Below are positions 31,111 to 49,901 of a DNA stretch of 64,000 nucleotides, in pieces (position 1 is the first letter of the stretch; every line of letters starts with the position of its first letter). The stretch is taken from the NCBI GenBank assembly GCA_919901915.1, contig CAKKQB010000013.1, positions 64,192 through 128,191 of the forward strand, read 5' to 3'. The notes below the pieces were generated by a model that saw only the letters and a list, made by a program, of their open reading frames with translations, made no database searches and was not told the origin of the DNA. The stretch is from Omnitrophica bacterium GWA2_41_15 (GTDB taxonomy: Bacteria > Omnitrophota > Gorgyraeia > Gygaellales > Profunditerraquicolaceae). The position numbers were made by a program, and so were the translations under genes.

Positions 31111-31398
31111 TTTAATTCTCCTTTTCTATTTGTTACACAATTTCTCTGCCTATAGCTTTGGCTATCGAAAGCCAAAGCTAAAAATTAAAAAGACACCTTA
31201 GAAAGTATTCAGAACGTCTTTGTTCTATACTTCTTTCGAAAAACCCAACCTGCTTCTTTGCAAGTTCCGGCTGTCTTAAATTATTGACAAAATCTTAGCA
31301 CCGAAACAACTTTTGTCAAGAAAAATAAACACGAATTACCACGAATTTTCACCCCACACCAATACATTAGTAACCCGCTTTGTCGTATCGAGCGCTCT

Positions 31399-34750: not shown

Positions 34751-37700
34751 CTGATGCCTCCACCAACTCTATTTTCTCTTCTGTTTTTCTGCCTCCTAAT
34801 ACACGTTTATATTCAATGGGCATAACTTTTACAAATTTTTTTAATTCAGGAGTAAAATTATCTAAGATATTTTTCGCGCTGGAACTGCGCGTATAATGAT
34901 AGTGATTAGAAAGCAACTTCTCGATTGTTCGCGCGTCTTCTTCGGCCACGGCCTCAAGTATTACCATTTCCATATTGCACTTATTCTTAAAATCTCCGTC
35001 CTTATCCCAAACATAGGCGATACCGCCTGACATACCCGCGGCAAAATTTCTTCCGGTTCTGCCGATAACCACAACTCTGCCTCCGGTCATATATTCGCAA
35101 GCGTGATCTCCTACGCCCTCAACCACCGCGTAAAGGCCGGAATTCCTGATACAAAATCTCTCACCGGCAATCCCGCGGATATAGGCAGAGCCTAAAATTG
35201 CTCCGTAAAAAGTAGTATTGCCAATAATAATATTTTCTTCTACTTTGTAATTTGATTGCCTATCCGGATAGATGATAATTTTCCCTCCGGACATACCTTT
35301 ACCTACATAATCATTCGTCAGGCCTTCTAACTCAAGAGTAACTCCTTTGGCAAGCCAAGCGCCAAAACTTTGACCTGCCACACCCTTAAATTTAAAGTGT
35401 ATCGTATTCGCGGGTAAACCATCCTCCCCAAAAATACGACAAACTTCGCCGCTTAACATCGTGCCGACACTACGATTATGATTTCTAATGGATAGCTCTA
35501 TTTTAATTGGCTTCCTATTTTCCAAGGCGCCCCGAGCCAATTCGATAAGTTTTCTATCTAGAATATTGTCAATTCCGTAATCCTGTTTATAAGGAGCCAA
35601 ACCACTGCCCTCTGGCTTGCGGCTCGGGCTATGGGAAGCCCGACCATTGCCCTTTGGCTGATATAAAATCCGGGAAAAATCTATTTTCTTTGCTTTCCAG
35701 GGAAGAATCTTGCTATTTACTTCCAACAAATCAGCGCGGCCAATCAGATCATCTATTTTAACAATACCTAAACTACTCATAATCTGACGCAATTCCTGGG
35801 CAATGAAACGAAAATAATTTTCTACATATTCCGGCTTCCCGCTAAAGCGTTTCTCTAAAAGTTCATCCTGCGTAGCCACGCCAAGAGAACAGTTATTTAA
35901 GTGGCAATGTCTAAGCATAACACATCCCAAAACAACTAAGACTGAAGTACAAAATCCAAACTCCTCCGCGCCCAAAAGCGCGGCCACAGCCACATCCCTG
36001 CCGGTGCGCATTCCTCCGTCAACCTGAAGCCTCACCCTGCTTCTTAAATCATTTAAAACCAGGGTCTGATGTGTTTCGGCAATACCTAATTCCCAGGGAA
36101 GCCCGGCATGCTTAATGGAACTTAAGGGGGATGCCCCGGTGCCGCCATCTCCGCCGGAAATCAAAATCATATCCGCGTGCCCCTTAGCCACTCCCGTGGC
36201 AATAGTTCCTACTCCAATTTCAGAAACAAGTTTTACACTAACGCGCGCGCGCGGATTAACATTTTTTAAATCAAAAATTAGCTGGGCTAAATCTTCAATA
36301 GAATAAATATCATGATGCGGCGGCGGAGAAATCAAAGTTACGCCGGGAGTTGTATAACGAATCTTAGCGATAGCCGCGCTTACTTTGTGGCCGGGAAGCT
36401 GGCCGCCTTCCCCGGGCTTAGCGCCTTGCGCGATTTTAATCTGCAATTCATCAGCATTTACTAAGTAATTCGTAATAACGCCAAAACGCCCGGAAGCAAC
36501 CTGCTTTATAGCGCTGCGCTTAGAATCTCCGTTTGGGAACGCGACAAAACGCGCTGGATCCTCTCCTCCTTCGCCGGTATTAGACCTACCCCCCAATCTA
36601 TTCATCGCGATAGCTATTGTTTCATGGCAAGCCTTACTAATTGAGCCAAAACTCATCGCGCCGGTAACAAAACGCCGGACGATTTCGCTAACCGGCTCTA
36701 CTTCTTCAATGGGAATAGGCTTAACTTCTTTAAATTTAAAAAGGCTTCTTAAAGTAGCAGGATTACTTGATTGATCATTAATGAGTTTCGCAAACTCCTG
36801 GTATTTTTTAGAATCATTATTTCTTACCGCACCCTGCAAAGCGGCAATACTATCCGGATTCCAAAGATGAAATTCACCGTCTTTCTTCCACTGATACAGG
36901 CCGCCAGTTGCTAAAAATGGCCTTTGTAAACCATCGACCGCGAATGCCTCTTTGTGCCTTAGAAGCGCTTCCTTCTCAATAATTCCTAAATCAATACCTC
37001 CAATACGGGAAACTGTTCCGGTGAAATATTTATCAATTACCTCTGAACTTAGGCCCAATGCCTCGAATATCTGCGCGCCCCGATAACTTTGTAAAGTAGA
37101 AATTCCCATTCTTGAGAGTATCTTTAGAATGCCTTTATCCACTGCCTTAATATAATGCTTTATCGCGGACTCTAAATCTAAGTCAACTTCCTTATCTCTA
37201 ATTAAAAAGGCGGCCGCTTCATAGGCAAGATACGGATTAATACAATCCGCGCCATACCCAAACAAGAGCGCGAAATGATGCACCTCGCGCGGAGAAGCGC
37301 TTTGAACAATAATACTTACCTGGGTACGCAGCGCCTTTCTTACCAAATCCTGATGCACACAAGCCGTTGCCAATAACGCGCTAAGGCAGGCCTTATCTTT
37401 ATTTATACCCTGATCACTTAAAATAACAAAAGTAAAACCCTCTTTTATCGCGGCTTCTGTTTCTTTGCAAATCCTGTCTAATGCTTTTTTAAAATTGTTT
37501 TTTTCTGAAATATTAAACAGAAGAGAAATTGTTTTTGTTTTAAAACCGTTCTTTTTTATATCGTGAATCTTTTTCAGATCTTCATTTGTCAAAATAGGAT
37601 TTTTTACTAATAACTTATGGCAATGCCGCGGCTGCTCATCCAAAATATTTTTTTGCGGCCCTAAATACGTATCAAGGCTCATCACCAGCTCTTCCCTGAT

Positions 37701-39386
37701 TGGGTCAATTGCCGGATTAGTAACCTGCGCGAATAACTGTTTAAAATAACTATAAAGCAACTGCGGCTTATCAGATAAAACCGCATGCGGGGTATCATTA
37801 CCCATTGAGCCATTCGGTTCATGAGAATCTTCCACCATAGGTTTAATGATAAATTTAAAATCCTCGCGGGTGTAACCGAAAGCTTTGAATAGAGTTAACG
37901 GATCTACTTTATTAGCGGATAGCGGATAGCTTTTATTAGCGTAGAGCGTAGAGCGTAAAGCGTAGAGCGTTTTGCTTTTCCTATCCGCTATACGCTCTAC
38001 GCTATCCGCTGATAATTTATCCAACTCTAACATATTTTTTTTAAGCCATTCTCCATACGGCTTAGAGCTTGCCATTGTTTCTTTTATTTCCTTATCTTCA
38101 ATTATGCGGCCTTCTTCTGTATCAACAAAAAGCATCTTTCCCGGTTCAAGCCTTCCTGAGATAGAAATATCATCCGGCGCGATATCTAAAACCCCTGCCT
38201 CTGAAGCCATAACTACCAAATTCTTTTTGGTCACAATATAGCGGCTAGGCCTTAAACCATTTCTGTCTAAAACCGCGCCAATCCTTACGCCATCAGTAAA
38301 GGCAATGGCTGCCGGTCCATCCCAGGACTCAATAAGACAAGTGTGGTATTTATAAAAATCTCTTACATTTTGACTCAAAAGATTATTCTGCTCCCAAGCG
38401 CTGGGTATTAACATCATCATCGCGTGAGACAAAGATCTACCCGATAAAACTAAAAGTTCAAAAACATTATCAATAGCCGCGGAATCGCTTCCCCCGGGAA
38501 CAATCACCGGAAAAATTTCCTTTAAATCCTTACCAAATAATTTACTTTTTAGTAAACCTTGGCGGGCAGTCATCCAATTTATATTCCCTTTTAAGGTATT
38601 TATCTCTCCATTATGCGCCAAGAACCGAAAAGGCTGCGCCAGATCCCAAGTGGGAAAAGTATTGGTACTATAACGGGAATGCACTAAACAAATCGCGCTT
38701 TGAAGAGCGCTGTCTTTTAAATCCAAAAAGAATTTCTCCAACTGCTCAGGCATAAGCAGGCCTTTATAAGAAAGCGTGCGGCAAGAAAGATTAGTAATAT
38801 AAAAAAATGATTTTTGTTTTAAGAATAAAGAGCGGATTTCGTTTTCTATTTTCTTGCGGATAATATAAAGCCTGCGCTCAAAATCAAGGCCATCCTTACC
38901 TATACTTAGACCTTTACCTTTACCTATAAAAACCTGCTCAATCACCGGTTGAGTAAGCTTTGCGGTTTTGCCAATCGCGGAATTATCAACCGGGACAATC
39001 CGCCAACCAAGCAAGGCCTGGCCCTCTTCTTTAATAATTCTAGCAAAGATACCCTTACATAACGCGCGCTCTTTTTTGTTAGTGGGAAGAAATACCATGC
39101 CTATCCCATAATCGCCAGAGGACGGTAAAATAAAATTTTCCTTCGCGCAGGCTTTTGCCAAAAATTCATGTGGCGCCTGAATAAGTATGCCTGCGCCATC
39201 CCCGGTCTCTGGGTCGGCGCCAGTTGCCCCGCGATGAGAAAGACGGCCTAAAACCTCCATGCCCTGTTTAATAATTTCATAAGATTTTTTGCCTTTGACA
39301 TCGCAAACAAATCCTACGCCGCAGGAATCATGTTCAAAACGGGAATCATACAACCCGTATTTTTCTAATTTCTGACGATTATCCAT
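34743..39386 (-). CDS. gltB: glutamate synthase large (alpha) subunit; carries in-frame heptamer-repeat insertion
   Basis: 1547 aa; MDNRQ..CGVGFV Ntn glutaminase, FMN and GXGXG domains; residues ~459-492 encoded by palindromic repeat at 37912-38010. Confidence 0.95.
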   Translation of the reverse strand: MDNRQKLEKYGLYDSRFEHDSCGVGFVCDVKGKKSYEIIKQGMEVLGRLSHRGATGADPETGDGAGILIQAPHEFLAKACAKENFILPSSGDYGIGMVFLPTNKKERALCKGIFARIIKEEGQALLGWRIVPVDNSAIGKTAKLTQPVIEQVFIGKGKGLSIGKDGLDFERRLYIIRKKIENEIRSLFLKQKSFFYITNLSCRTLSYKGLLMPEQLEKFFLDLKDSALQSAICLVHSRYSTNTFPTWDLAQPFRFLAHNGEINTLKGNINWMTARQGLLKSKLFGKDLKEIFPVIVPGGSDSAAIDNVFELLVLSGRSLSHAMMMLIPSAWEQNNLLSQNVRDFYKYHTCLIESWDGPAAIAFTDGVRIGAVLDRNGLRPSRYIVTKKNLVVMASEAGVLDIAPDDISISGRLEPGKMLFVDTEEGRIIEDKEIKETMASSKPYGEWLKKNMLELDKLSADSVERIADRKSKTLYALRSTLYANKSYPLSANKVDPLTLFKAFGYTREDFKFIIKPMVEDSHEPNGSMGNDTPHAVLSDKPQLLYSYFKQLFAQVTNPAIDPIREELVMSLDTYLGPQKNILDEQPRHCHKLLVKNPILTNEDLKKIHDIKKNGFKTKTISLLFNISEKNNFKKALDRICKETEAAIKEGFTFVILSDQGINKDKACLSALLATACVHQDLVRKALRTQVSIIVQSASPREVHHFALLFGYGADCINPYLAYEAAAFLIRDKEVDLDLESAIKHYIKAVDKGILKILSRMGISTLQSYRGAQIFEALGLSSEVIDKYFTGTVSRIGGIDLGIIEKEALLRHKEAFAVDGLQRPFLATGGLYQWKKDGEFHLWNPDSIAALQGAVRNNDSKKYQEFAKLINDQSSNPATLRSLFKFKEVKPIPIEEVEPVSEIVRRFVTGAMSFGSISKACHETIAIAMNRLGGRSNTGEGGEDPARFVAFPNGDSKRSAIKQVASGRFGVITNYLVNADELQIKIAQGAKPGEGGQLPGHKVSAAIAKIRYTTPGVTLISPPPHHDIYSIEDLAQLIFDLKNVNPRARVSVKLVSEIGVGTIATGVAKGHADMILISGGDGGTGASPLSSIKHAGLPWELGIAETHQTLVLNDLRSRVRLQVDGGMRTGRDVAVAALLGAEEFGFCTSVLVVLGCVMLRHCHLNNCSLGVATQDELLEKRFSGKPEYVENYFRFIAQELRQIMSSLGIVKIDDLIGRADLLEVNSKILPWKAKKIDFSRILYQPKGNGRASHSPSRKPEGSGLAPYKQDYGIDNILDRKLIELARGALENRKPIKIELSIRNHNRSVGTMLSGEVCRIFGEDGLPANTIHFKFKGVAGQSFGAWLAKGVTLELEGLTNDYVGKGMSGGKIIIYPDRQSNYKVEENIIIGNTTFYGAILGSAYIRGIAGERFCIRNSGLYAVVEGVGDHACEYMTGGRVVVIGRTGRNFAAGMSGGIAYVWDKDGDFKNKCNMEMVILEAVAEEDARTIEKLLSNHYHYTRSSSAKNILDNFTPELKKFVKVMPIEYKRVLGGRKTEEKIELVEASDG
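37912..38010. repeat. family F heptamer-array palindrome inserted in frame inside gltB
   Basis: agcggat x2 ... agcgtag x4 ... ctatccgct atacgct ctacgct atccgct; translates LSADSVERIADRKSKTLYALRSTLYANKSYPLSANK. Confidence 0.85.
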
Positions 39387-39391
39387 ATTTT

Positions 39392-39558
39392 TAGCGTATA
39401 GCGTATAGCGTAGAGCGTAGAGCGTATAGCGTATAGCGTAGAACGTAGAGCGTAGAGCGGATAGCGGATAGTAAAAATCTATGTTTTAACTATATGTTAT
39501 CCGCTATTCCTACACGCTTTCTTTCCTATCCGCTAAACGCTATACGCTCTACGCTAAT
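39392..39558. repeat. largest family F locus (11-unit left arm + degenerate right arm) between glnN and gltB
   Basis: direct reading of tandem heptamers. Confidence 0.85.
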
Positions 39559-39589
39559 ATAAAATACCTCATAGACCTACGAGGCATAT

Positions 39590-41785
39590 TTAGTTTATAA
39601 ATAACATCTCCCTATATTTGGGAAGATCCCAGGTATCATCCGGAACAACAGATTCCAATGAGTCCACGTGCCTGCGGATATGCTCCATTAACGGCTTAAG
39701 CTCCTCAAAATAAATCTGCGCGCGTTTTTCGCTGCCTACCTGTTTAGCCCTATCAAGCAGTTTAACCATCGCCAGAGAATTTTTACGCACATAATAAATC
39801 TTTGAAACTACCTCACAAAGATGCTCTTTTTTATCATTTAATACCGCCTCATTTATTTTTAGGCCCGCGCTTTTCTTAAGCTTAACTAATTCATCCAAAG
39901 TAGAAGCCAGTAATTTCTCATACTTATAACCCGCTGGCACCACCGAAGCATTAACCATCTCATTTAAAGTATTAGCTTCGATTTCCAGAATGAGATTATA
40001 CATATGGATCCAAATGTGATACCGCGCAGCCAACTCCTCTTTAGAAAAAACCTTATATTTTTCAAAAAGAGCGACATTTTCTTTTTTATTTAAAGCTTCC
40101 AGCGACTCATAAGTAGCAGCGACATTCGCTAAACCGCGTTTTTTAGCTTCCTTGACCCACTCCTCTGAATAGTTATTTCCTTCAAAACGAATATACTTAG
40201 TTTCTTTAACGATTTTAGAGATCACCTGCAAAACGCCAGCGTTAAAATCCTTTCCCGCGGAAACAGCTCCCTTAATCTGCTCAGCAACATAGTCTAAGCT
40301 TTCAGCAATTATCGTGTTGATTACCGTAATCGACGTAGAGATATTCTGCGATGAACCTACAGCGCGGAATTCGAATTTAGCCCCGGTAAAAGCAAACGGT
40401 GAAGTACGATTCCTATCCGTTGAATCCTTGCTAAACTTAGGCAGACGAGCGATACCAAAATCCATAATATCAGCTTTAGAAACTTTTGACTTAACCCCTT
40501 TTTCAATCATATCCAAAATATTAGTCAATTGCTCGCCCAGAAACACACTAATGATCGCCGGAGGCGCTTCATTTGCCCCTAAACGATGCTCATTGCCGGC
40601 TAATGCCACAGAGGCGCGCAAAAGATCGCCATGCGAATAGACTGCTCTTAAAACCGCGGCTAAAACCGCTAAAAATTGCAGATTATCTTCCGGAGTCTGG
40701 CCGGGATTAAGCAAATTATTACCTTGATCATCCGCTAGCGACCAGTTCAGGTGTTTTCCGCTTCCGTTTATACCGGCAAATGGTTTCTCATGCAAAAGGC
40801 AAACCAGATTATGCTTTAAGGCAACCTTCTTCATCAACTCCATAAGTAATTGGTTATGATCAGCGGCAATATTTGATTCCTCAAACATTGGAGCAAATTC
40901 ATACTGATGCGGAGCAACTTCATTATGACGGGTTATTACCGGTATGCCCAACTTATAAGCCTCTTGAGCCACCTCAAACATAAAATTAACTACGCGCTCT
41001 TTAATCGTTCCGAAATACTGATCTTCTAATTGCTGGCCTTTAGGGCTTGGCGCGCCAATCAAAGTGCGGCCGGTCATAATTAAATCCTGGCGTAAATTAT
41101 AATAGTTTTTATCAATCAAAAAGTATTCCTGCTCCGCCCCGCAAGTTGAAAAAACTTTTTTGATCTGCTGATGGCCAAAAAGCTTAAGCAATTCCAATGC
41201 GGATTTATTTAAAGCTTCATCAGAACGCAGAAGCGGAAGCTTCTTATCCAATGCCTCACCATGATAAGAAATAAATATCGTCGGAATACAGAGAGTCTTA
41301 CCCAGCGCGCTTTCAATAATAAAAGCGGGGCTGGAAGGATCCCATGCGGTGTAACCTCTGGCTTCAAAAGTCGCGCGAATGCCGCCTGAAGGAAAACTCG
41401 ACGCATCAGGCTCGCCTTGAATCAGTTTATTCCCGGAAAATTTCTCAATAACTTTACCCGGGCCAATAATCGAAATAAAACTATCATGTTTTTCCGCGGT
41501 AAGCCCGGTCATCGGCTGAAACCAATGCGTATAATAGGTAGCGCCCAAATCAGTCGCCCAATTTTTTATAGCATCAGCAATCTCATCAGCTTGAACCAAA
41601 CTTATAATCTTACCCGCAGACATCCATGTCTTAAACGCCTCAAAAGTATCCTTAGAAATATGTTTCTGCATAGTTTCAAGGCTAAAAGTATTCTGCCCGA
41701 AATACGTAGAAACTTTATCCGGCGCCTCCACCTTATCTAATTCTAAACTTTTAATCCTAAACAAAACTTTCTGTCTTATACTCAT
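39590..41785 (-). CDS. glnN: glutamine synthetase type III
   Basis: 731 aa, GSIII length and N-terminal/catalytic architecture; RBS AAAGGAGG. Confidence 0.85.
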   Translation of the reverse strand: MSIRQKVLFRIKSLELDKVEAPDKVSTYFGQNTFSLETMQKHISKDTFEAFKTWMSAGKIISLVQADEIADAIKNWATDLGATYYTHWFQPMTGLTAEKHDSFISIIGPGKVIEKFSGNKLIQGEPDASSFPSGGIRATFEARGYTAWDPSSPAFIIESALGKTLCIPTIFISYHGEALDKKLPLLRSDEALNKSALELLKLFGHQQIKKVFSTCGAEQEYFLIDKNYYNLRQDLIMTGRTLIGAPSPKGQQLEDQYFGTIKERVVNFMFEVAQEAYKLGIPVITRHNEVAPHQYEFAPMFEESNIAADHNQLLMELMKKVALKHNLVCLLHEKPFAGINGSGKHLNWSLADDQGNNLLNPGQTPEDNLQFLAVLAAVLRAVYSHGDLLRASVALAGNEHRLGANEAPPAIISVFLGEQLTNILDMIEKGVKSKVSKADIMDFGIARLPKFSKDSTDRNRTSPFAFTGAKFEFRAVGSSQNISTSITVINTIIAESLDYVAEQIKGAVSAGKDFNAGVLQVISKIVKETKYIRFEGNNYSEEWVKEAKKRGLANVAATYESLEALNKKENVALFEKYKVFSKEELAARYHIWIHMYNLILEIEANTLNEMVNASVVPAGYKYEKLLASTLDELVKLKKSAGLKINEAVLNDKKEHLCEVVSKIYYVRKNSLAMVKLLDRAKQVGSEKRAQIYFEELKPLMEHIRRHVDSLESVVPDDTWDLPKYREMLFIN

Positions 41786-41803
41786 GTGTTCCTCCTTTTA
41801 ATA

Positions 41804-41850
41804 GTGTATAGCGGATAGTTTTACTTTTTTTTATCCACTAACCTACCCTT
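41804..41850. repeat. family F-derived short hairpin with T9 loop between amt and glnN
   Basis: gtgtatagcggatag-T9-atccact. Confidence 0.6.
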
Positions 41851-41865
41851 TATAACTAACAATTA

Positions 41866-43023
41866 CTAAGCATCAAGAAATTCTTCAGCATCCGCGTAGG
41901 CCTCTGCTCTTCTGCCAAAAAGCGAAAGTATTAATCCCGAGATATACCCACTAACAAAAGCTAGTACAACAGCAATAACAATACCTGTCCACTGCTTTCT
42001 GCAATCTAATCCGCTTACAACAAACATCGCGGCAATACCGCCCATTAAACCGGGTAGCCCATGTAAACACATAACACCGCAAGTATCTACTTTCTTAATT
42101 TTATTCTGCAACCATGGGAGAATAACAGCAAAACCAAATACCGACAAGGCTCCGGCTAATAATCCGATTACCATTGAACTAACTGGGTTCGCGTAATCAC
42201 AAGTAGAACCAATAGCCACGCCGCCAGCCAATGACGCGTTCGCGATATCACTAATTGAAATCTTGCGCCTCAAAACACAAGAAGTAATATAGGTAGCTAA
42301 CGTCGCGCCGCAAAGAGCAATAACCACATTAATTACCGTTTGTGGCACCTTTGCCGTTGGCACAAGCGCCGCGCAAAAACTTGGCCAAAAAAACCACAAG
42401 ACCATACTCCCCAACATTGAGAATCTGTCGCTTACAACATCCGTTTCTATGGGTGTATCAAATTCTTTTTTTGTGGTCAAATTCATTATCAGGCCAAACC
42501 CAAAAATAGCTCCGAAGGCATGGATTATTATAGAACCTCCAGTATCCGCGAAACCGCCATTAGGCAACAATCCAAAGCCGCCTGAAAGAATTATCCATTC
42601 ATTCAACATATAACAAGGAACAAAAAGCAACCCTAATATAATATATTGAATCATTTTTAATCTGCCTAACACCGCGCCGGCACAGATCAAAAGGCCTGCT
42701 CCCGCGAACTCTGCCAAAATCAAGCCGTCTATACCTGTCTGAACATTTCCAAATAAACCTAAACTATTGAGACAAATATATAACGGTACTGCCACGCTTA
42801 CCAGCAAGAATGTCGCTGTCAACGCGGAGCGCCCATACTTTTTAACAAAAACCATCAAAAAACCAAACCCAACTAAAAGCATTGCCATTATATGTATTGC
42901 CCGATCACATTTTTGAACATCTGTAACTGGGCCTAAAAAATCCTCTGCCGAACTAACACGCAGAAAAATTAACGACGCAGCCAACACCAACAACAATATT
43001 AACATCCAACGATTTTTTTTCAT
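41866..43023 (-). CDS. amt: ammonium transporter (Amt/Rh family)
   Basis: 385 aa, 11 TM, Amt signature DFAGG...; leader with promoter/operator/terminator. Confidence 0.85.
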   Translation of the reverse strand: MKKNRWMLILLLVLAASLIFLRVSSAEDFLGPVTDVQKCDRAIHIMAMLLVGFGFLMVFVKKYGRSALTATFLLVSVAVPLYICLNSLGLFGNVQTGIDGLILAEFAGAGLLICAGAVLGRLKMIQYIILGLLFVPCYMLNEWIILSGGFGLLPNGGFADTGGSIIIHAFGAIFGFGLIMNLTTKKEFDTPIETDVVSDRFSMLGSMVLWFFWPSFCAALVPTAKVPQTVINVVIALCGATLATYITSCVLRRKISISDIANASLAGGVAIGSTCDYANPVSSMVIGLLAGALSVFGFAVILPWLQNKIKKVDTCGVMCLHGLPGLMGGIAAMFVVSGLDCRKQWTGIVIAVVLAFVSGYISGLILSLFGRRAEAYADAEEFLDA

Positions 43024-43083
43024 TTTATCCTTTCTTTGCCTAAAAAAGTAACTTCCCTTAATAAGCTGAAGACGTCCCTGTCC

Positions 43084-43119
43084 TTAAAAACAAGAAGCCC
43101 CAAAACATTTTGGGGCTTC
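43084..43119 (-). terminator. intrinsic terminator inside the amt 5' leader (attenuator)
   Basis: minus GAAGCCCCAAAATGTTTTGGGGCTTC followed by TTGTTTTTAAGG; 60 nt upstream of amt ATG. Confidence 0.7.
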
Positions 43120-43130
43120 TTTGCCTTTGA

Positions 43131-43175
43131 CTTAATTGTCAATTAAGATCATAGCATATTTCATATTCTTGTCAA
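43131..43175 (-). promoter_or_regulatory. amt promoter (minus-strand TTGACA-16-TATGAT) with 8-1-8 palindromic operator CTTAATTGWCAATTAAG spanning the predicted TSS
   Basis: -35 at 43170-43175, -10 at 43148-43153, palindrome 43131-43147. Confidence 0.6.
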
Positions 43176-43201
43176 GAAAAAAAATGCAAGGGGAGGGGAA
43201 T

Positions 43202-44635
43202 TTAGGTTCTTTCGTCTTTAAGGTAGTTAATTATTGAAAAAGCGGCTTTCTTAGCCATGCCCATTGCCTCAATAACCGTGCCTTCTCCACCCACGATATC
43301 TCCGCCGGCAAAAACGCCTTTAATAGATGTCTCCATAGTTTGGGGGTTTACGATAACATCTTTGTATTTATCGGTTTTTAACTCCGATGTAACATTAGTT
43401 AAAACCTGATTTGCCTGCAAACCCACGGCAATAATCGCTATATCGCAATCTATTCCAAAATCGCTTCCCTCTACAGCAACCGGCCTTCTTCTCCCGGATT
43501 CATCCGGCTCTCCCAAGCGGCACCTAAGACACCTTAACTTTTGCACCTTTCCTTCCTCATCGCCGATAAACTCTACTGGCTGAACCAAAAATTCAATTTT
43601 TATTCCCTCTTCCTTAGCATGTTCGATTTCCAATCTTCTTGCCGGCATCTCAACTTCAGTCCTACGATAAAGAATTGTGGTGTTAGGGCTAAACCCATTT
43701 ATTATTTGCAATCTTAACGCGGCTCGAGCAGCATCCAAAGCTGTATTGCCTCCGCCAACAACTAAGACCTGCTTACCTATATTAATAGGGGTGTGAAACT
43801 GAGGAAACTTGTCAGCTAACATCAAATTAACCCGAGTTAAGAATTCATTGGCTGAATAAACATTGCCTAAATTCTCGCCTTTTATTTCTAAAAATGACGG
43901 CACACCCGCGCCCAACCCCAGAAATATAGCAGAATATCCTTCGCTAAAAAGCTCATCTAACGCCTTAACTTTTCCCACAATAAAATTAGGGATGAGTTGA
44001 ACCCCCAATTTCTTTAACTCATTTATTTCATAATCAAGAACATCGCGCGGCATCCTAAAAGGGGGTATCCCATACCTTAAAACTCCGCCCGGTTTATGCA
44101 AACTCTCAAAGATATCCACCTTTACTCCCTGCCTTGCCAATTCACCGGCGCAAGCCAAACCAGCCGGACCAGAACCCACAACCGCGACTTTAAACCCAAA
44201 CTTAACAAATTTCTGATCCTTGCCTGCTGGCGCCTCCAAATTATTCTTTACCCCATAATCACCGACAAATCTTTCCAAAAAATGAATATTGATTGCCTGC
44301 TCTGAAGCAAAAGAGGCGGTCTTTTTTGTCAAAACACAAGCCCTGCGGCACTGATATTCCGCGGGACAAACCCTTCCGCAAATAGAGGGAAAATCATTCT
44401 TTTCCCGAAGAATAAAATAAGCCGCCCTATAATCTTTTTTGGTAATCCAAGAGATAAACTCCTTTATATTTATTCCTACGGGACAACCGAATTGACAAAT
44501 AGGGTTCGGACACTGCAGACAGCGGTTAGCCTCAATAAGCGCCTCTTCTTCTGTGTATCCTAAAACTACCTCATCAAAATTCTTTATTCTTTCTGAAGGA
44601 TTTAATTCTCTTACTTTTACTGCTTCTTTTTTCAT
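43202..44635 (-). CDS. nfnB: NADH-dependent reduced ferredoxin:NADP oxidoreductase large subunit (NfnB/SudA, GltD-like)
   Basis: 477 aa, 2x[4Fe-4S] Cys motifs, FAD and NADPH Rossmann folds. Confidence 0.8.
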   Translation of the reverse strand: MKKEAVKVRELNPSERIKNFDEVVLGYTEEEALIEANRCLQCPNPICQFGCPVGINIKEFISWITKKDYRAAYFILREKNDFPSICGRVCPAEYQCRRACVLTKKTASFASEQAINIHFLERFVGDYGVKNNLEAPAGKDQKFVKFGFKVAVVGSGPAGLACAGELARQGVKVDIFESLHKPGGVLRYGIPPFRMPRDVLDYEINELKKLGVQLIPNFIVGKVKALDELFSEGYSAIFLGLGAGVPSFLEIKGENLGNVYSANEFLTRVNLMLADKFPQFHTPINIGKQVLVVGGGNTALDAARAALRLQIINGFSPNTTILYRRTEVEMPARRLEIEHAKEEGIKIEFLVQPVEFIGDEEGKVQKLRCLRCRLGEPDESGRRRPVAVEGSDFGIDCDIAIIAVGLQANQVLTNVTSELKTDKYKDVIVNPQTMETSIKGVFAGGDIVGGEGTVIEAMGMAKKAAFSIINYLKDERT

Positions 44636-44661
44636 CCTCTTATTTTTAATGTTTTAGTATT

Positions 44662-44741
44662 TAGCGGATAGCGTATAGCGTATATATAGGTTTTACTATC
44701 CGCTATACGCTCTACGCTATACGCTATACGCTTGATATTTT
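44662..44741. repeat. family F palindrome between nfnB and nfnA
   Basis: agcggat agcgtat agcgtat / atccgct atacgct ctacgct atacgct atacgct. Confidence 0.85.
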
Positions 44742-45569
44742 AAGATTACAGATATGCTTTTCTTTATCTAAATAAACACTGTTCCTCTTTGTCAATTCAT
44801 CCCAATTTACTTGAGTTCCGTCAAATTCCGGGCCATCAACGCAAGCAAATTTCGTCTTACCTGCCACAGTTACACGGCAACAGCCGCACATTCCAGTAGC
44901 ATCTACCATCAAAGGATTCAAAGAAACAATGGTTTTAACTTTAAAATCGCTAGCAACCTCGCAAACTCTTCTCATCATCGGTATCGGGCCGACTGCGTAA
45001 ATTAGCGAATAGCGGATAGCGGATAGTGAATAGCTTAATACCTCCTGCAAAATATCAGTAACAAAGCCTTTCCTGCCGCAAGAACCGTCATCAGTGGTTA
45101 TATAAAGCTCATCGCAAAACACCTTTAGCTCCTGCTCCAAAATCAATAAATCATTGTTTCTTGCGCCCAGTATAGTAGTAGTATGGTTTCCCGCTTCTTT
45201 CAAAGCCTTGGCAACCGGATAAATCTCCGCAATTCCTACGCCTCCGCCTACAAGAATTAAATTTCCAAAATTTTTAATCTCAGTAGCATGCCCCAGGGGC
45301 CCGGCCAAAGCGTATAATGAATCACCAACCTCCATCTTGCCCAGCAACTTAGTAGTTAAGCCAACCTCTTGAAAGATCAAGGTAATTGTGCCTATGTCAG
45401 AATTTTTATCTACTATAGTTAGAGGTATCCTTTCGCCTTCCTCGCATACCATAAGAACAACAAATTGGCCCGGTCTTACTTTCCTGGCAATAAGCGGGCT
45501 TAAGATTTCAAAGCGCTTAATTGTTACGTCTTGCGTTTGTGCTAAAATTTCTTTTTTGATTATCCGCAT
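44724..45569 (-). CDS. nfnA: NfnA/SudB (PyrK-like FAD/[2Fe-2S] subunit); in-frame heptamer-repeat insertion
   Basis: 281 aa; C-terminal CGCC...C 2Fe-2S; segment LSYSLSAIRYSLI encoded by repeat 45003-45036. Confidence 0.75.
   Translation of the reverse strand: MRIIKKEILAQTQDVTIKRFEILSPLIARKVRPGQFVVLMVCEEGERIPLTIVDKNSDIGTITLIFQEVGLTTKLLGKMEVGDSLYALAGPLGHATEIKNFGNLILVGGGVGIAEIYPVAKALKEAGNHTTTILGARNNDLLILEQELKVFCDELYITTDDGSCGRKGFVTDILQEVLSYSLSAIRYSLIYAVGPIPMMRRVCEVASDFKVKTIVSLNPLMVDATGMCGCCRVTVAGKTKFACVDGPEFDGTQVNWDELTKRNSVYLDKEKHICNLKISSV
45003..45036. repeat. family F single arm inserted in frame in nfnA
   Basis: agcgaat agcggat agcggat agtgaat. Confidence 0.75.
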
Positions 45570-45607
45570 AGAAAAAATTGATTACCGAAAGAAAAGGATT
45601 CGTTGAT

Positions 45608-45728
45608 GGGACTGTTGTGAAATACCAAACCTTGCGTCATTCTGAGGCCGAAAGCCGAAGAATCTCGACGCTGATAAGATCCTTCGCTTCGCTCAGGATG
45701 ACGAAAAAGGGTATTTCGCAACGGTCCC
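45608..45728. mobile_element. MITE family B: same TIR family (GGGACTGTTGYGAAATAC) with different internal hairpin GTCATTCTGAGGCC...GCTCAGGATGAC
   Basis: TIRs at 45608-45626 and 45709-45728. Confidence 0.7.
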
Positions 45729-45740
45729 TTGATCGGAATC

Positions 45741-46478
45741 TTACTTTACATCACTGTAATCATTCTTATTTTTTAATTCGGCAGTTAAAATAATTGCTTC
45801 GGCGATTTCGCGCATGGACTTACGTTTATCCATACTCTGTTTTTGAATTAATCTGTAGGCCTCGGATGGTTTTACATCTGCCTCCTGGGAAAGTATATCC
45901 TTTGCCCGTTCAATCAGCTTGCGGGTAACTAAGGCTTCTTCAGCGCTATGCGCCCGCAAAGATAATTCAGCATTTTCAATGGCCATAGCCGTCTGATTGG
46001 CCAAAGTTGTAAGAAGACTTATCTCGGATTTTGTAAACTTATGTCTTTTTGAGGTATAACAATTAAGCACGCCGATTACTGTCCCTCTTACTGCCAAAGG
46101 GACACTAGCCAAAGAACAAAGCCCTTCTTTTTTAGCGATGTCCCTATTTAAGTAATCCGCGTCTTCCCTGACATCCAAAACAACCATTGATTTATTATCC
46201 CGCGCAACCGCTCCCGCAATCCCCTCTCCTAATTTTATATTGGGTTTTTTATTGTAGCTTTGAGAAATAGACTGGGTCGCGCGTACAACTAATTCTTTCC
46301 TCTCGGAATCAAGAAGCATCAAAGAAGAGATTTTTAAATTCATCACCTGGGCAGTAACCTCAACAACTAAACGAAGAAGCTCGTCCAGATACAAGCCTGA
46401 AGTAATCAGGTTCGCGACCTTAGAAATCGCCTCAATCTGCTTTGTATAAACCTGATAACCCTTTACCTTTTTAATCAT
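45741..46478 (-). CDS. GAF-ANTAR RNA-binding antitermination regulator
   Basis: 245 aa; N-terminal GAF; C-terminal ANTAR (EAYRLIQKQSMDKRKSMREIAEAII). Confidence 0.8.
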   Translation of the reverse strand: MIKKVKGYQVYTKQIEAISKVANLITSGLYLDELLRLVVEVTAQVMNLKISSLMLLDSERKELVVRATQSISQSYNKKPNIKLGEGIAGAVARDNKSMVVLDVREDADYLNRDIAKKEGLCSLASVPLAVRGTVIGVLNCYTSKRHKFTKSEISLLTTLANQTAMAIENAELSLRAHSAEEALVTRKLIERAKDILSQEADVKPSEAYRLIQKQSMDKRKSMREIAEAIILTAELKNKNDYSDVK

Positions 46479-46484
46479 AATTAG

Positions 46485-47642
46485 TTAACGATTCCTCTTC
46501 AAAAAACTTTCTATTCTACTTAACGCCTCTTTCAAATTATCAAAACTTGCGGCATAGGATATGCGAATATTGTCCGCGAACTGAGCGCCAAAAGCTGTGC
46601 CCGGAATAACCGCGACCTTTTCCTCCTTTAAAAGCTGTTGGCAAAAATCCATCGCCTTAAGACCGCTGCTTTTTATGCTGGGAAAAGCATAGAAAGCACC
46701 CTGCGGCTTTGAACACTCAAGGCCGATGCGATTCAGCTCACTAACCACAAACTCTCTTCTTCGTTTATATTCACGCTTCATCTCTTCCACTGATTTTCTG
46801 CCTGAATGCATCGCTTCAGAAGCAGCTATTTGAGAAGTAATAGACACGCACATAATGGTATACTGATGAATCTTAGTCATAGCCGCGATAATCTCTTTTG
46901 GGCCGCAAGCAAAGCCCACACGCCAGCCAGTCATCGCGTAACTTTTGGAAAAACCATCAAGATAAACAGTCGAATTTTTTGCTTGAGGCAATGTCGCGAA
47001 AGGCGTATGAGTAAAATCATACGTCAAATCTCCATAAACCTCATCGCTGATACAAAGCAGATTATACTTCAACGCGATCTTCTTAATTTCCTCTAATTCT
47101 TTTTTAGTATAAGATACGCCCGTAGGATTAGTAGGGTAGTTCAATATAATTGCTTTAGCTTTCTTGTCTATGCTCTTCTCCAAGCTTTCCGGTGTAAGCT
47201 TAAAATTGTTTTTACTTGTATCGATATAAACAGGTATACCGCCGGCTAATTCACTAACCGGGCCGTAAGAAACATAACATGGCTCGGGTATAATTATTTT
47301 ATCACCCGGATTTATAATGGAACGCAAAACTAAATCCAAAGCCTCGCTTACCCCAACAGTAATCAAAATCTCTTCATCCGGACAATAATCCAAACCGTAT
47401 TTATTTTTTAGGTATTGTGAAATGGTCAGCCTTAATTTATACAAGCCCTTATTTGAGGTGTAAGAGGTAAAACCCTCTTCTAATGAAGCTATCCCTGCTT
47501 CGCGTATCTGCCAAGGCGTAACAAAATCCGGCTCACCCACGCCAAGGGAAATTACATCCTTCATGCCTAATACTAAATCAAAAAACGCGCGAATTCCGGA
47601 GGGATGCATTTGCTTAACTTTTTCGGAAACCAAATCTTTCAT
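46485..47642 (-). CDS. class I/II PLP-dependent aminotransferase (aspartate aminotransferase-like)
   Basis: 385 aa; NPTG, SKSYAMTGWRVGF PLP-lysine region. Confidence 0.85.
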   Translation of the reverse strand: MKDLVSEKVKQMHPSGIRAFFDLVLGMKDVISLGVGEPDFVTPWQIREAGIASLEEGFTSYTSNKGLYKLRLTISQYLKNKYGLDYCPDEEILITVGVSEALDLVLRSIINPGDKIIIPEPCYVSYGPVSELAGGIPVYIDTSKNNFKLTPESLEKSIDKKAKAIILNYPTNPTGVSYTKKELEEIKKIALKYNLLCISDEVYGDLTYDFTHTPFATLPQAKNSTVYLDGFSKSYAMTGWRVGFACGPKEIIAAMTKIHQYTIMCVSITSQIAASEAMHSGRKSVEEMKREYKRRREFVVSELNRIGLECSKPQGAFYAFPSIKSSGLKAMDFCQQLLKEEKVAVIPGTAFGAQFADNIRISYAASFDNLKEALSRIESFLKRNR

Positions 47643-47650
47643 CGTTTTCA

Positions 47651-47718
47651 GCGTTTAGCGGATAGCGTTTAGCGTATAGTTTTTTTTATCCGCTATACGC
47701 TCTACGCTATACGCTATT
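47651..47718. repeat. family F palindrome between lrp and aminotransferase
   Basis: arms around T8 loop. Confidence 0.85.
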
Positions 47719-48202
47719 AATACGATATAGCTATCCTCTTATTCTCTTCCCTGTGCTTCAAAATCACTCCATCTTCCTTATATTTTTTTAATAAAAAGTG
47801 CGTGACTATGCCGCGGATATTCTCGAGGCAAGAAAGTTTCTCCGCTACAAATTGTGAAACTTTTTGTAAATTCTTGCCCTCAACTATAACCAAAAGGTCA
47901 TACGTGCCGGAAATCAAGCAACAGTCAGTTACCTCCGGAAACGAATAAATACGCTCAGCAATTTTATCAAAACCAATATCCTTTTGCGGAGCAATATTAA
48001 CCTCTATCAAAGCCCTGACGGAAGGCTCTTCGGTTTTAATTAAATCCTTATTTATTACTGTTTTATATTTTAAAATTATCCCCTCTTTTTCATACTTTTT
48101 TATCGCCTCTTTTATTGCCTCCGGCTTTTTCTTTAACATTTTCGCGATCTCTTCCGGAGTTACAAGCGCGTTCTTTTCTAATATCTCTAATATTTCGTCC
48201 AT
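47717..48202 (-). CDS. lrp: Lrp/AsnC-family transcriptional regulator
   Basis: 161 aa; HTH + RAM domain. Confidence 0.85.
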   Translation of the reverse strand: MDEILEILEKNALVTPEEIAKMLKKKPEAIKEAIKKYEKEGIILKYKTVINKDLIKTEEPSVRALIEVNIAPQKDIGFDKIAERIYSFPEVTDCCLISGTYDLLVIVEGKNLQKVSQFVAEKLSCLENIRGIVTHFLLKKYKEDGVILKHREENKRIAISY

Positions 48203-48225
48203 TACCTCGCTCCTTTCAGTCGCTC

Positions 48226-48288
48226 GGAGAGAACAGATTACAGAGTACGGATTACTGAAAGATTTTTCTGTGCTCTGTTCTCTGTGCT
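48226..48288. repeat. family G heptamer palindrome (CAGAGAA/CAGAGCA units) forming nadE 3' end
   Basis: gagagaacagattacagag ... ctgtgctctgttctctgtgc. Confidence 0.8.
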
Positions 48289-49008
48289 TTCTTTAATATA
48301 GCATATTTTCGGCCCTTCCCTCTTATGCTCTGATTTCTTTACCATATTTTTTACTTTATTTACTTTCTCTTTTGATAAGACCTGTTTCTTCTTGTTTTCC
48401 AAACGCTCCAATATGTCATCTAACTCGTTATAGGTAAGCCCCATTTCTCCTTCATCGGTCTGGCCTGGCCAGAGTCCGGCAGTAGGCGGCTTAGTAACAA
48501 TGGATTCGGGAATCTTTAATTCTTTAGCCAATGCCCTTACCTGTTTTTTTAATAAACCGCCGATTGGCAAAATATCCGTTGCCCCGTCGCCATACTTGGT
48601 AAAATAACCGACTTCAATTTCAGATCTATTTCCTGTGCCGCAGACAAGATAATTAAGTTTATTGGCAAAATAATATAAAACTAACATCCTTAAGCGCGGT
48701 TTTAAATTTGCCAAAGCTAACGGCCCCGCTTTGGGTAAAATTTTCATGACATTGTCGTAAATATCAGCCAAATCAATTAATTTTATTTTTATCCCAAATT
48801 TCCTTGCCACTAACTTTGCGTCATCTAAATCCTGTTTTTGACTATGACAGCCAAGAAACAAAACCAAAAGTTTTTGTTTACCCAGCGCTTCCCTGGCTAA
48901 AACAGCTACCACCGCGGAATCTATCCCCCCGCTTAAACCCATAACAATACCCTTTGCCTTAGCCGCTTTGACCTGCTGCCTAATCCAAGAAATAATTTTC
49001 TTTTTCAT
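48238..49008 (-). CDS. nadE: NH3-dependent NAD+ synthetase; C-terminus supplied by heptamer repeat
   Basis: GLSGGIDSAVVAVLA PP-loop; last 16 aa STENRAQKNLSVIRTL encoded by repeat 48226-48288. Confidence 0.85.
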   Translation of the reverse strand: MKKKIISWIRQQVKAAKAKGIVMGLSGGIDSAVVAVLAREALGKQKLLVLFLGCHSQKQDLDDAKLVARKFGIKIKLIDLADIYDNVMKILPKAGPLALANLKPRLRMLVLYYFANKLNYLVCGTGNRSEIEVGYFTKYGDGATDILPIGGLLKKQVRALAKELKIPESIVTKPPTAGLWPGQTDEGEMGLTYNELDDILERLENKKKQVLSKEKVNKVKNMVKKSEHKREGPKICYIKESTENRAQKNLSVIRTL

Positions 49009-49107
49009 ATTTTATTTAAAAATATCACCTAAATAAACCGGGACCGAGAACCGCCCCTGTTTCTTGCCCCTGCTTCTCACAATATTGCACTTTTAAGCAA
49101 TGCTCGT

Positions 49108-49815
49108 TTACGCGGCTTCGCGCAAAAAATTTGTACCCCTGCAGGCGCCGACGCAAACTCCGCAAACATATTGATCTGCTAATCTCTGCTTTTGAAACTC
49201 CTTTAACTTCTCAAAACACTTGATATGATCAAATTCTGTTGCTTCCTCTTTTATTGCTCCAGAGGGACATATTTTAGCACAAAGCATACAACTACCGCAA
49301 TCTTTTTTTACCGGCTTATCTATTTTCAAAGGCATATTGGTAAGTATGGTAACTAAGCGAAATTGACTTCCTAAGGTTTCGTTAACCAATAAATTATTCC
49401 TGCCAATCCAGCCTAAACCAGCTAAGACACCTATCTTTTTATGCGAAAGATGCGCCTTTTGGTTCTGCCAATCTAAAATTATTGAAGCAGGAATTGGCAA
49501 GGCAAGAAAACTTTTTTTCTGTATGTAATTACATATTTTAAGGCTACTCTGATCCAAAAACGCGTTGACTACGCGATAATGATGAAAATAAAGACGGGTA
49601 GGACTATCAACAATTTCTTCTAAAATACTCCCGGATAACCTTACGCCCAGGCAAACCGCGCTATCTAATTTATCAATGGCCTTGCCAGATAAAAGAAAAT
49701 CCTTTTTTATCTCTTTGATATCCGCGACACCAAATAAATCTATACCTAAATCCTGACAGAATTTCTTTAATTGCGAATAATTTTTATTTTTGCTTACACT
49801 CTCTTGCATATACAA
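49108..49815 (-). CDS. epoxyqueuosine reductase (QueG)-like 4Fe-4S protein, short form
   Basis: 235 aa; GLGWIGRNNLLVN...LGSQFRLVTILT like QueG core; CGSCMLCAKICPSGAI ferredoxin motif. Confidence 0.5.
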   Translation of the reverse strand: MYMQESVSKNKNYSQLKKFCQDLGIDLFGVADIKEIKKDFLLSGKAIDKLDSAVCLGVRLSGSILEEIVDSPTRLYFHHYRVVNAFLDQSSLKICNYIQKKSFLALPIPASIILDWQNQKAHLSHKKIGVLAGLGWIGRNNLLVNETLGSQFRLVTILTNMPLKIDKPVKKDCGSCMLCAKICPSGAIKEEATEFDHIKCFEKLKEFQKQRLADQYVCGVCVGACRGTNFLREAA

Positions 49816-49832
49816 TTATCAAAAACCACCCT

Positions 49833-49901
49833 GTCATTCTGAGGCCCTGAAGGGGCCGAAGAATCTCGACGCTAATAAGATCCTTCGCTTCGCTCAGGAT
49901 G
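49833..49901. repeat. family B internal hairpin module without TIRs, overlapping mnmG 3' end
   Basis: gtcattctgaggccctgaaggggccgaagaatctcgacgctaataagatccttcgcttcgctcaggatgac. Confidence 0.7.

Follow-up and report, generated by a model that had tools for sequence, protein, structure and literature searches.

A putative ANTAR-type transcription attenuator in the leader of a probable Rh-type ammonium transporter and glutamine synthetase operon of an Omnitrophota bacterium

Here we report that the 178-nt spacer in front of an Rh-type ammonium transporter gene of Omnitrophica bacterium GWA2_41_15 (assembly GCA_919901915.1, contig CAKKQB010000013.1, positions 64,192 to 128,191) is probably the leader of an operon for this transporter and a type III glutamine synthetase (GS-III), and that it probably acts as a transcription attenuator of the kind controlled by ANTAR antitermination proteins. 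The spacer occupies positions 43,024 to 43,201 of the 64,000-nt stretch analysed here, which we call the window; coordinates count from its first letter, and all those of the leader refer to the minus strand.

We propose that a sigma-70-type promoter would start an RNA with two alternative folds in its first ~55 nt. By default an intrinsic terminator hairpin, T1 (13 bp, -21 kcal/mol), would form and transcription would stop at GUUUUU, ~62 nt before the start codon. An active GAF-ANTAR protein would bind two hexaloop hairpins, P1 (probably) and especially P2, and the folded P2, held by the protein, would block T1 and let RNA polymerase read on into Rh and GS-III. Nitrogen status is presumably what the GAF domain senses, for example as 2-oxoglutarate or glutamine, and T1 may additionally end the sudBA-like operon that lies upstream. 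A link between this leader and ANTAR antitermination had been offered as a hypothesis in a sequence-only reading of the same DNA, and it appears stronger than that reading supposed: a canonical P2 overlaps the terminator, a model of published ANTAR targets (R1, below) ranks the leader first in the window, and the architecture is kept at 13 related loci. The elements on which the proposal is built are as follows.

43170..43175, minus strand: -35 hexamer TTGACA, inside TTCTTGACAA
43148..43156, minus strand: extended -10 element TGcTATGAT (TATGAT 43153-43148; TG 43156-43155)
43131..43147, minus strand: perfect 8-1-8 palindrome CTTAATTGACAATTAAG, that is CTTAATTG-A-CAATTAAG, overlapping P1
43127..43142, minus strand: candidate P1, UUGAC-AAUUAA-GUCAA, a 5-bp stem with a hexaloop
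43114..43125, minus strand: P2, GGC-AAAGAA-GCC, a canonical ANTAR hexaloop hairpin (A1, G4) with a 3-bp stem
43092..43121, minus strand: intrinsic terminator hairpin T1, AAGAAGCCCCAAA-ATGT-TTTGGGGCTTCTT, 13 bp, loop AUGU
43086..43091, minus strand: U-tract of T1, GUUUUU
43021..43033, minus strand: Shine-Dalgarno-like AAAGGA and ATG (43023-43021) of the Rh-type transporter gene

Two mutually exclusive folds behind a predicted promoter

ANTAR targets have been defined by two hexaloop mini-hairpins carrying A at loop position 1 and G at position 4 (A1 and G4), the second of which lies at the 5' base of a terminator (Ramesh et al. 2012, PMC3369931). The second hairpin is plain in this leader. Within its flanks P2 reads AGGC-AAAGAA-GCCC, a complete match to the published RRGY-AAHGDV-GCYY, which corrects the sequence-only reading, where the dual ANNGNN hexaloop motif had not been found by eye. 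P2 and T1 overlap by 8 nt (43121-43114): the T1 5' arm (43121-43109) begins with five loop bases and the entire 3' arm of P2, so the two structures are mutually exclusive.

The terminator itself fits the definition of a Rho-independent terminator, with 13 pairs including 6 G-C and a 4-nt loop. Its folding energy of -21.1 kcal/mol makes it the strongest terminator-like site in a 12-kb scan, and 62 nt separate the end of its U-tract from the transporter ATG, in keeping with the textbook terminator placed about 60 nt from the start codon by the sequence-only reading. The whole leader folds with z = -4.1 relative to shuffles. P1, whose AC/GU closing pairs fit the published consensus and whose loop has five of six consensus bases, is present in the minimum-free-energy fold and is worth -3.3 kcal/mol. 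Together P1 and P2 amount to -7.8 kcal/mol against -21.1 for T1, which fits termination by default and an antiterminator that is stabilised by protein.

The promoter matches 11 of 12 consensus positions, with a 16-nt spacer between the -35 and -10 elements and the additional TG of an extended -10; the TTGACA-16-TATGAT arrangement noted earlier on the minus strand is thus present. It is the best promoter-like site in a scan of 38000-50000 and the sole one in the intergenic region. That scan gave no second promoter-like site between T1 and the ATG, and expression of the transporter would therefore require read-through. From the usual 7-nt distance to the -10 element we infer that transcription starts at about 43141. 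A sigma-54 promoter (GG-N10-GC spacing), sought by eye in the leader, was not found. These observations uphold the reading as a promoter and, behind it, a leader that contains a conditional terminator.

Two other predicted promoters in the window, at 31322-31313 and 56270-56261, share the TTCTTGACAA context. The second of these is part of a third such promoter-like site (56270-56230, minus strand; TTGACA-17-TTATAC), upstream of a gene at 53711-56068, and the extended -35 context appears to be general to strong promoters in this genome. Within the leader there are two copies of the decamer AGGCAAAGAA, at 43126-43117 (the 5' half of P2) and at 43041-43032, just before the Shine-Dalgarno sequence; in such purine-rich sequence the repeat may be due to chance.

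Search with a model of published ANTAR targets

A covariance model, R1, was built from 31 published ANTAR targets taken from Fig. S2 of Ramesh et al. 2012, aligned with their published structure and including no sequence from the window or its relatives. The whole 64 kb was searched with R1 on both strands, with filters off and with a shortened calibration. The top match, at 15.9 bits, is 43141-43114, with both P1 and P2 aligned; the score is held down because P1 carries a U at loop position 4 and because 7 linker positions are deleted. All further matches in the window reach at most 12.3 bits, and the two at 12.3 are a hexaloop of another nitrogen-gene leader and a site in the Rh coding region.

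R1 also finds the Rh leaders of related loci, at 26.9 bits (L043), 24.9 (L006), 18.8 (L100), 17.0 (L005), 16.7 (L038 and L040), 16.4 (L101), 15.5 (L047), 14.6 (L032) and 13.6 (L085). For most of these loci no R1 match outscores the Rh leader, and the 15.9 bits of the window lie inside the range of 13.6-26.9.

Related leaders

Scans with the transporter protein yielded 36 genome loci and 54 metagenome loci, and look-ups of single homologues added more. The layout of P1, P2 and terminator recurs in 13 further Rh leaders, from 13 related loci with 11 distinct sequences (L005, L032/L039, L038, L040, L043, L044, L047, L085, L092, L100, L101 and L006, the record of the last being labelled Planctomycetia). 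In these leaders P1 is UUCUGC-AGCGUA-GCAGAA or a variant, followed by an A-rich linker of 4-5 nt, and P2 is GGC-AGAGAG-GCC or GGC-AAAGAA-GCC, with the terminator starting inside it. The P1 loop of most is AGCGUA or similar, with G4 present; that of L100 is AACUUA, which also has U at position 4, so that the deviation in the window is not unique. P2 is identical to that of the window in L043 and near-identical in 12 other Rh leaders. When the relatives' leaders are folded by minimum free energy, P1 and the terminator form and P2 is consumed by the terminator. The terminator stems differ between lineages (GAAGCCCCAAAA in the window, GGCCUUAC in L005, GGCCUCAC in L047, GCCCAUUAUGUGC in L006 and GAAGCCUCAAG in L037), which argues for selection on structure.

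A MAFFT alignment of the leaders misplaced the P1 of the window and the L006 leader, and a model-guided alignment was used instead. Pairs were counted in 16 aligned matches (15 distinct), 11 of them Rh leaders and the rest nitrogen-gene leaders of L037 and L101. Every cell was paired (100%), and three of the four P1 pairs had changed on both sides. The covariation score was 0.498 as against 0.161 in shuffles, none of 500 of which reached 0.498, a figure to be read with the caution that the alignment was fitted to R1 and that the sequences are related.

The genes upstream of the related Rh leaders vary: a tRNA in L032, an ANTAR gene directly upstream in L006, and a nitroreductase-like gene elsewhere. 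Because these upstream units differ, the hairpins appear to belong to the Rh gene and not to the preceding unit. Several relatives have a TTGACA-type promoter 5' of P1.

Higher-GC Omnitrophota (L003, L004, L041, L042 and L095) have Rh upstream regions without the ANTAR motif. They share another conserved block before Rh, CTGGACA...GAAGTATCCTACGC-CCAAAAA, and L095 has a gene for a GAF-sigma54 activator beside GS-III, amtB and glnB. This suggests that the higher-GC lineages use a different regulatory solution.

Points of weakness and alternative explanations

Several observations weigh against an ANTAR-type attenuator in this leader. Although the leader ranks first in the R1 search, a scan for ANTAR-target RNAs that the sequence-only reading had proposed, its E-value is only ~0.09 across the window (shortened calibration), compared with 2.5e-4 inside the 178-nt leader. 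P1 has A1 and a U in place of G4, and only 1-2 nt separate it from P2, where eut leaders have 5-12 nt. Both features matter in Enterococcus faecalis eutP, in which a G-to-A change at loop position 4 strongly reduced induction, as did a 3-nt linker, and linkers of 3 nt or 14 nt impaired induction (PMC3369931). A start at about 43141 would put P1 at the extreme 5' end of the RNA, where one or two bases of its stem could be lost. P2 (GGC/GCC) is nearly invariant among the relatives and contributes no covariation. The promoter scan of the region gave 19 matches against 26.4 in shuffles, that is, no excess. A crude scan for hexaloops overlapping a terminator yields 0.35-1.7 modules per shuffled window, so that the architecture alone, without position and conservation, is not significant; T1 also lies 81 nt past the stop codon of a co-directional upstream gene, whose operon it may end in addition to attenuating the transporter gene or instead of doing so. 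When terminators overlapped by a hexaloop hairpin were sought with a stricter script, the module of this leader was the sole one in the window, a count that is likewise not significant alone, since shuffled windows gave 0.35-1.7. A naive scan of the window and loci for dual hexaloops and a T-run was too noisy to use; it flagged a second leader at 31266, described below.

The first alternative concerns the palindrome, which is indeed perfect, as the sequence-only reading had it (43147-43131). It could be a DNA operator for a dimeric repressor (Lrp/AsnC or other) that replaces the RNA mechanism or adds to it, and the same reading had named the nearby Lrp-family protein as a possible occupant. 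Its 17 bp stand beside the -10 element and over the predicted start, and an 8-1-8 palindrome is rare enough (~1.9 expected per 64 kb) that the chance of one in a given 178-nt stretch is small. We nevertheless consider an operator rather unlikely, since perfect palindromes are generally enriched in the window, which has seven of the 8-1-8 type against ~1.9 in Markov simulations and 22 with spacers of 0-3 against 7.5 simulated. Relatives of this palindrome elsewhere in the window do not exceed chance (15 matches at up to 3 mismatches, 14.1 expected), neither it nor a related site occurs in any of the related leaders compared, and it matches none of the operator consensuses that could be tried. 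Part of its symmetry is explained by the overlapping P1 hairpin. The Lrp gene lies four genes off in a conserved Lrp-aminotransferase pair that is syntenic across Omnitrophota, which suggests that Lrp regulates its neighbour, a local target.

The palindrome was also considered as P1. Its 5-nt distance to P2 matches that of the relatives, but its loop would have 5 or 7 nt without A1/G4, the RNA hairpin is worth only -1.3 kcal/mol, and its 5' half is probably upstream of the start and hence untranscribed, because the start is placed ~7 nt after the -10 element (around 43141). The overlapping UUGAC-AAUUAA-GUCAA was preferred.

A second alternative, which we judge unlikely, is that T1 has no role beyond ending the sudB/sudA-like operon that precedes it (44724-45569 and 43202-44635), and that both the promoter match and the hexaloops are fortuitous. 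On that unlikely view, transcription of the transporter gene would come from a promoter not recognised here or from constitutive leak-through. The 81 nt between the upstream stop codon and T1 hold no other terminator, and neither the promoter scan, with its lack of excess over shuffles (19 against 26.4), nor the crude module scan is significant by itself. A plain terminator would, however, leave the conserved P1 and P2 sequences and the match to a published model unexplained. It also does not account for a promoter-like site with 11 of 12 positions and TG between the stop codon and T1 and none between T1 and the ATG, or for a P1-P2-terminator unit that precedes Rh genes whose upstream neighbours differ entirely among relatives. 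Ending the upstream operon as a second role of T1 is compatible with attenuation. T1 is not the terminator of a convergent gene, a possibility that the sequence-only reading had itself raised, because the gene upstream of the spacer (43202-44635, GltD/SudA-like) is co-directional with the transporter gene and no plus-strand open reading frame (ORF) of at least 110 aa lies near the leader.

That promoter and T1 form a stand-alone small RNA gene of ~55 nt, a metabolite riboswitch or a leader-peptide attenuator is highly improbable: a promoter with a strong terminator ~55 nt on is likewise small-RNA anatomy, and Rfam gives weak sub-threshold matches (rimP, 30.7 bits against a cut-off of 47; Phe_leader; MicC), but all of these rest on the terminator hairpin alone, far below gathering scores, no leader ORF is present in the ~30 nt that precede the terminator, a length insufficient for any known aptamer, and the element is always found immediately upstream of, and co-oriented with, an Rh gene or another nitrogen gene. 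At gathering thresholds Rfam returned only a tRNA elsewhere in the window and nothing for the leader. The nitrogen-related scan proposed by the sequence-only reading, run on the leader at E up to 10, gave no match to glnA RNA (RF01739) or another nitrogen family, and the best matches aligned only to the terminator.

The GAF-ANTAR protein and a candidate nitrogen regulon

The candidate trans-acting antiterminator is encoded two genes upstream of the transporter leader on the same strand (45741-46478), where the sequence-only reading had placed it. In this protein of 245 aa Pfam recognises GAF_2 (4.9e-22) and ANTAR (PF03861, 3.8e-17) domains. The ANTAR domain aligns to those of Rv1626 (1s8n), EutV (6wsh) and NasR (4akk), and the GAF domain is nearest to uncharacterised GAF domains and to those of PtsP and NifA-type proteins, a resemblance from which 2-oxoglutarate or glutamine would be our guess for the ligand. 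This protein would presumably bind the leader hairpins, and its effect on the operon would presumably be activation by antitermination.

The top 120 clusters consist of orthologues with ~76-82% identity, and all that carry a source name are from Omnitrophota. In three long contigs (L096, L098 and L099) the gene belongs to a block mnmG ... nadE - Lrp - aminotransferase - glnA (GS-I) - GAF-ANTAR, with sudBA-like genes and gdh close by. A tblastn search of the fetched loci placed ANTAR genes near Rh only in the window, L006, L008 and L009; the GAF-ANTAR gene usually lies away from Rh, within the conserved Lrp-aminotransferase-glnA-ANTAR block. The window has the same block without the GS-I gene (46478-46485), with GS-III downstream of Rh instead.

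Units of promoter, hexaloop hairpin and overlapping terminator also precede gdh (L098), sudB (L096) and a GS-III gene (L101), and in L037 they precede a GltB-like gene and a cluster with two Amt-like ORFs and gltB. These leaders have sigma-70-like promoters, and the loop and 3' arm of the hairpin (for example GGAC-AAAGGC-GUCC) form the 5' arm of the terminator, often in two or three modules in tandem. We infer from this distribution a nitrogen regulon served by one ANTAR protein. In L101 the GS-III gene downstream of Rh has its own promoter and two hexaloop-hairpin/terminator modules (1390-1530), in contrast to the window, where Rh and GS-III are only 80 nt apart and have no such element between them.

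A more speculative extension, which we put forward as a tentative possibility, is that the GAF-ANTAR protein is a phylum-wide master regulator of nitrogen assimilation in Omnitrophota, sensing a metabolite directly through its GAF domain and often acting on leaders with a single hexaloop. The examples of single hairpins would be the gdh, sudB and GS-III leaders, modules 2-3 of L037 and, with its degenerate P1, the leader of the window, an assignment that we hold equally tentatively. If true, recognition would be monopartite, a departure from the dual-hairpin rule of EutV, NasR and AmiR, and leaders with two or three modules in tandem would allow graded control.

Comparison with known ANTAR systems

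On balance the leader resembles an ANTAR-target attenuator closest to those of Geobacter GnfR and of the EutV type, and the mechanism is one already known elsewhere. Dual-hairpin RNAs recognised by ANTAR proteins (EutV/eut in E. faecalis, NasR/nasF and AmiR/amiE; PMC3369931) have two adjacent hexaloop hairpins, as here, and the P2 of eutP, GGC-AAAGGA-GCC, is close to the GGC-AAAGAA-GCC of the window. In the eut-type targets and in the window alike, the 5' base of an intrinsic terminator takes in the 3' arm of P2. The targets of Ramesh et al. 2012 likewise include cases with an ANTAR protein encoded nearby and nitrogen-assimilation genes downstream, and those predicted in their Table S2, from many bacteria, include ammonium transporters, glutamine synthetases and glutamate synthases (PMC3369931). 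The differences lie in the off-consensus P1 loop (U4) and the linker of 1-2 nt, as against 5-12 nt in eut leaders, and in the regulator, which carries a GAF sensor where the EutV/NasR/AmiR type has a receiver, NIT or AmiR_N domain. The transporter is Rh-type and not AmtB-type, the host is an uncultured Omnitrophota bacterium, and some related Omnitrophota leaders, unlike the dual-hairpin targets, carry modules with one visible hexaloop hairpin.

The precedent from Geobacter, to which the sequence-only reading appealed for ANTAR control of amtB and glnK leaders, is real. In Geobacter sulfurreducens the GnfR site CAGGCAANGGCGCC overlaps terminators in the nifH, glnK and amtB leaders (Ueki and Lovley 2010, PMC2995071); GnfR was demonstrated to bind the nifH site, and nifH transcripts ended prematurely when it was lost (PMC2995071). 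The GnfK/GnfR system thus has a GGCAAnGnnGCC-type site over the terminator, and the window has AGGCAAAGAAGCC where Geobacter has CAGGCAANGGCGCC. GnfR is a phosphorylated receiver-ANTAR response regulator with a histidine kinase and sigma-54 control (PMC2995071), whereas here GAF is fused directly to ANTAR with no receiver domain and the promoter looks sigma-70-type. Mycobacterial ANTAR RNAs (bioRxiv 10.1101/660928; PMC8164766) have the same dual-hairpin motif and tolerate loop variation, but they overlap start sites and repress translation; the effect here would be on transcription, because P2 overlaps a terminator 62 nt before the ATG.

The conceptual gain is modest, since both the mechanism class and its link to ammonium transporters were predicted in 2010-2012. 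What sets this case apart is its GAF-ANTAR regulator, a transporter of the Rh type, a host from the Omnitrophota, a P1 and a linker that depart from the consensus, and the occurrence of single-hairpin modules in relatives. As of 2012 no ANTAR protein paired with a GAF domain had been characterised (PMC3369931), and full-text searches of the literature found no later characterisation; the window therefore offers a concrete, testable regulator-target pair for such a protein. It also gives a first sketch of how ammonium uptake and the glutamine synthetase/glutamate synthase (GS/GOGAT) genes may be controlled in Omnitrophota, by RNA-level antitermination from sigma-70-type promoters. The related leaders can be viewed as natural variants for dissecting what ANTAR proteins need, among them U4, 7-nt loops, very short linkers and single-hairpin modules.

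Remainder of the leader and a second candidate leader

The stretch between T1 and the Shine-Dalgarno sequence holds a further hexaloop hairpin.

43069..43084, minus strand: module 2 hairpin AGGAC-AGGGAC-GUCUU (A1, G4), R1 7.7 bits

The closest relative with any leader sequence is L093, in which the protein is 85% identical and the contig ends just upstream. It has a homologous hairpin, AAGAC-AGAGAC-GUCUU, followed by an intact, strong, overlapping terminator, AGAGACGUCUUC...GAAGUCGUCUCU-U8, of whose stem the window keeps only CUUC/GAAG. Module 2 (43084-43042 in the window, 1-76 in L093) thus appears to have decayed in the window and to be the relic of a tandem attenuator. A pairing of the T1 loop (AAUGUU) with the module 2 hairpin as a dual motif with a 7-nt linker was rejected as an antiterminator of T1, since it presupposes a T1 that has already folded.

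Another candidate leader of the ANTAR type, at 31319-31111 (minus strand), precedes a gene for a 547-aa protein (29467-31110) with a Glu_synthase FMN domain only. Its promoter is TTGACA-16-TGcTAAGAT, and its two hairpins are AACUUGC-AAAGAA-GCAGGUU (31266-31247) and AGAAC-AAAGAC-GUUCU (31226-31211), with only a weak AAAGAC/GUCUUU terminator after them and, further on, a strong hairpin of 10 bp (31178-31153). This leader and that of the transporter each contain the decamer GCAAAGAAGC, which has no third copy in the window. The orthologue of the second leader in L037 has three hairpin-terminator modules.

Gene neighbourhood and repeats

The minus strand carries every gene between 33 kb and 52 kb of the window. 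The genes around the leader are given below in their order on that strand, with functions assigned by Pfam.

nadE, minus strand: 5' end of the order listed here, before the Lrp/AsnC gene
47717-48202, minus strand: Lrp/AsnC gene
46485-47642, minus strand: aminotransferase gene
45741-46478, minus strand: GAF-ANTAR gene, candidate trans-acting antiterminator
44724-45569, minus strand: SudB/FNR-like gene
43202-44635, minus strand: GltD/SudA-like gene
178-nt spacer, minus strand: the leader under study, between the GltD/SudA-like gene and the Rh-type transporter gene
41866-43023, minus strand: Rh-type ammonium transporter gene (PF00909, 1.9e-46)
39590-41785, minus strand: GS-III gene
34743-39386, minus strand: gltB, followed by gltD

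Homologues of the transporter carry the source name "ammonium transporter Rh", and the closest named ones are from Candidatus Omnitrophota. Co-transcription of GS-III with the transporter gene is probable: no terminator occurs in the 80 nt between them, and the next one lies at 39587-39564.

The spacer between GS-III and gltB contains a heptamer, plus-strand TAGCGTA, repeated 11.4 times in tandem (39392-39471), and another 4.4 copies in inverse orientation at 39526-39556, ~60 nt from the tandem array; together the two arrays can fold as a long imperfect hairpin upstream of gltB. A related motif, TATCCGCTAT, is found at 41815-41806 in the Rh/GS-III spacer. An exact 23-nt repeat, CATCCTGAGCGAAGCGAAGGATC, has two copies on the minus strand (45678-45700 and 49879-49901), one in the spacer between the ANTAR gene and sudB and the other encoding HPERSEGS, the C-terminal tail of the mnmG ORF. 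The repeat resembles a small dispersed element and may distort the ends of ORFs.

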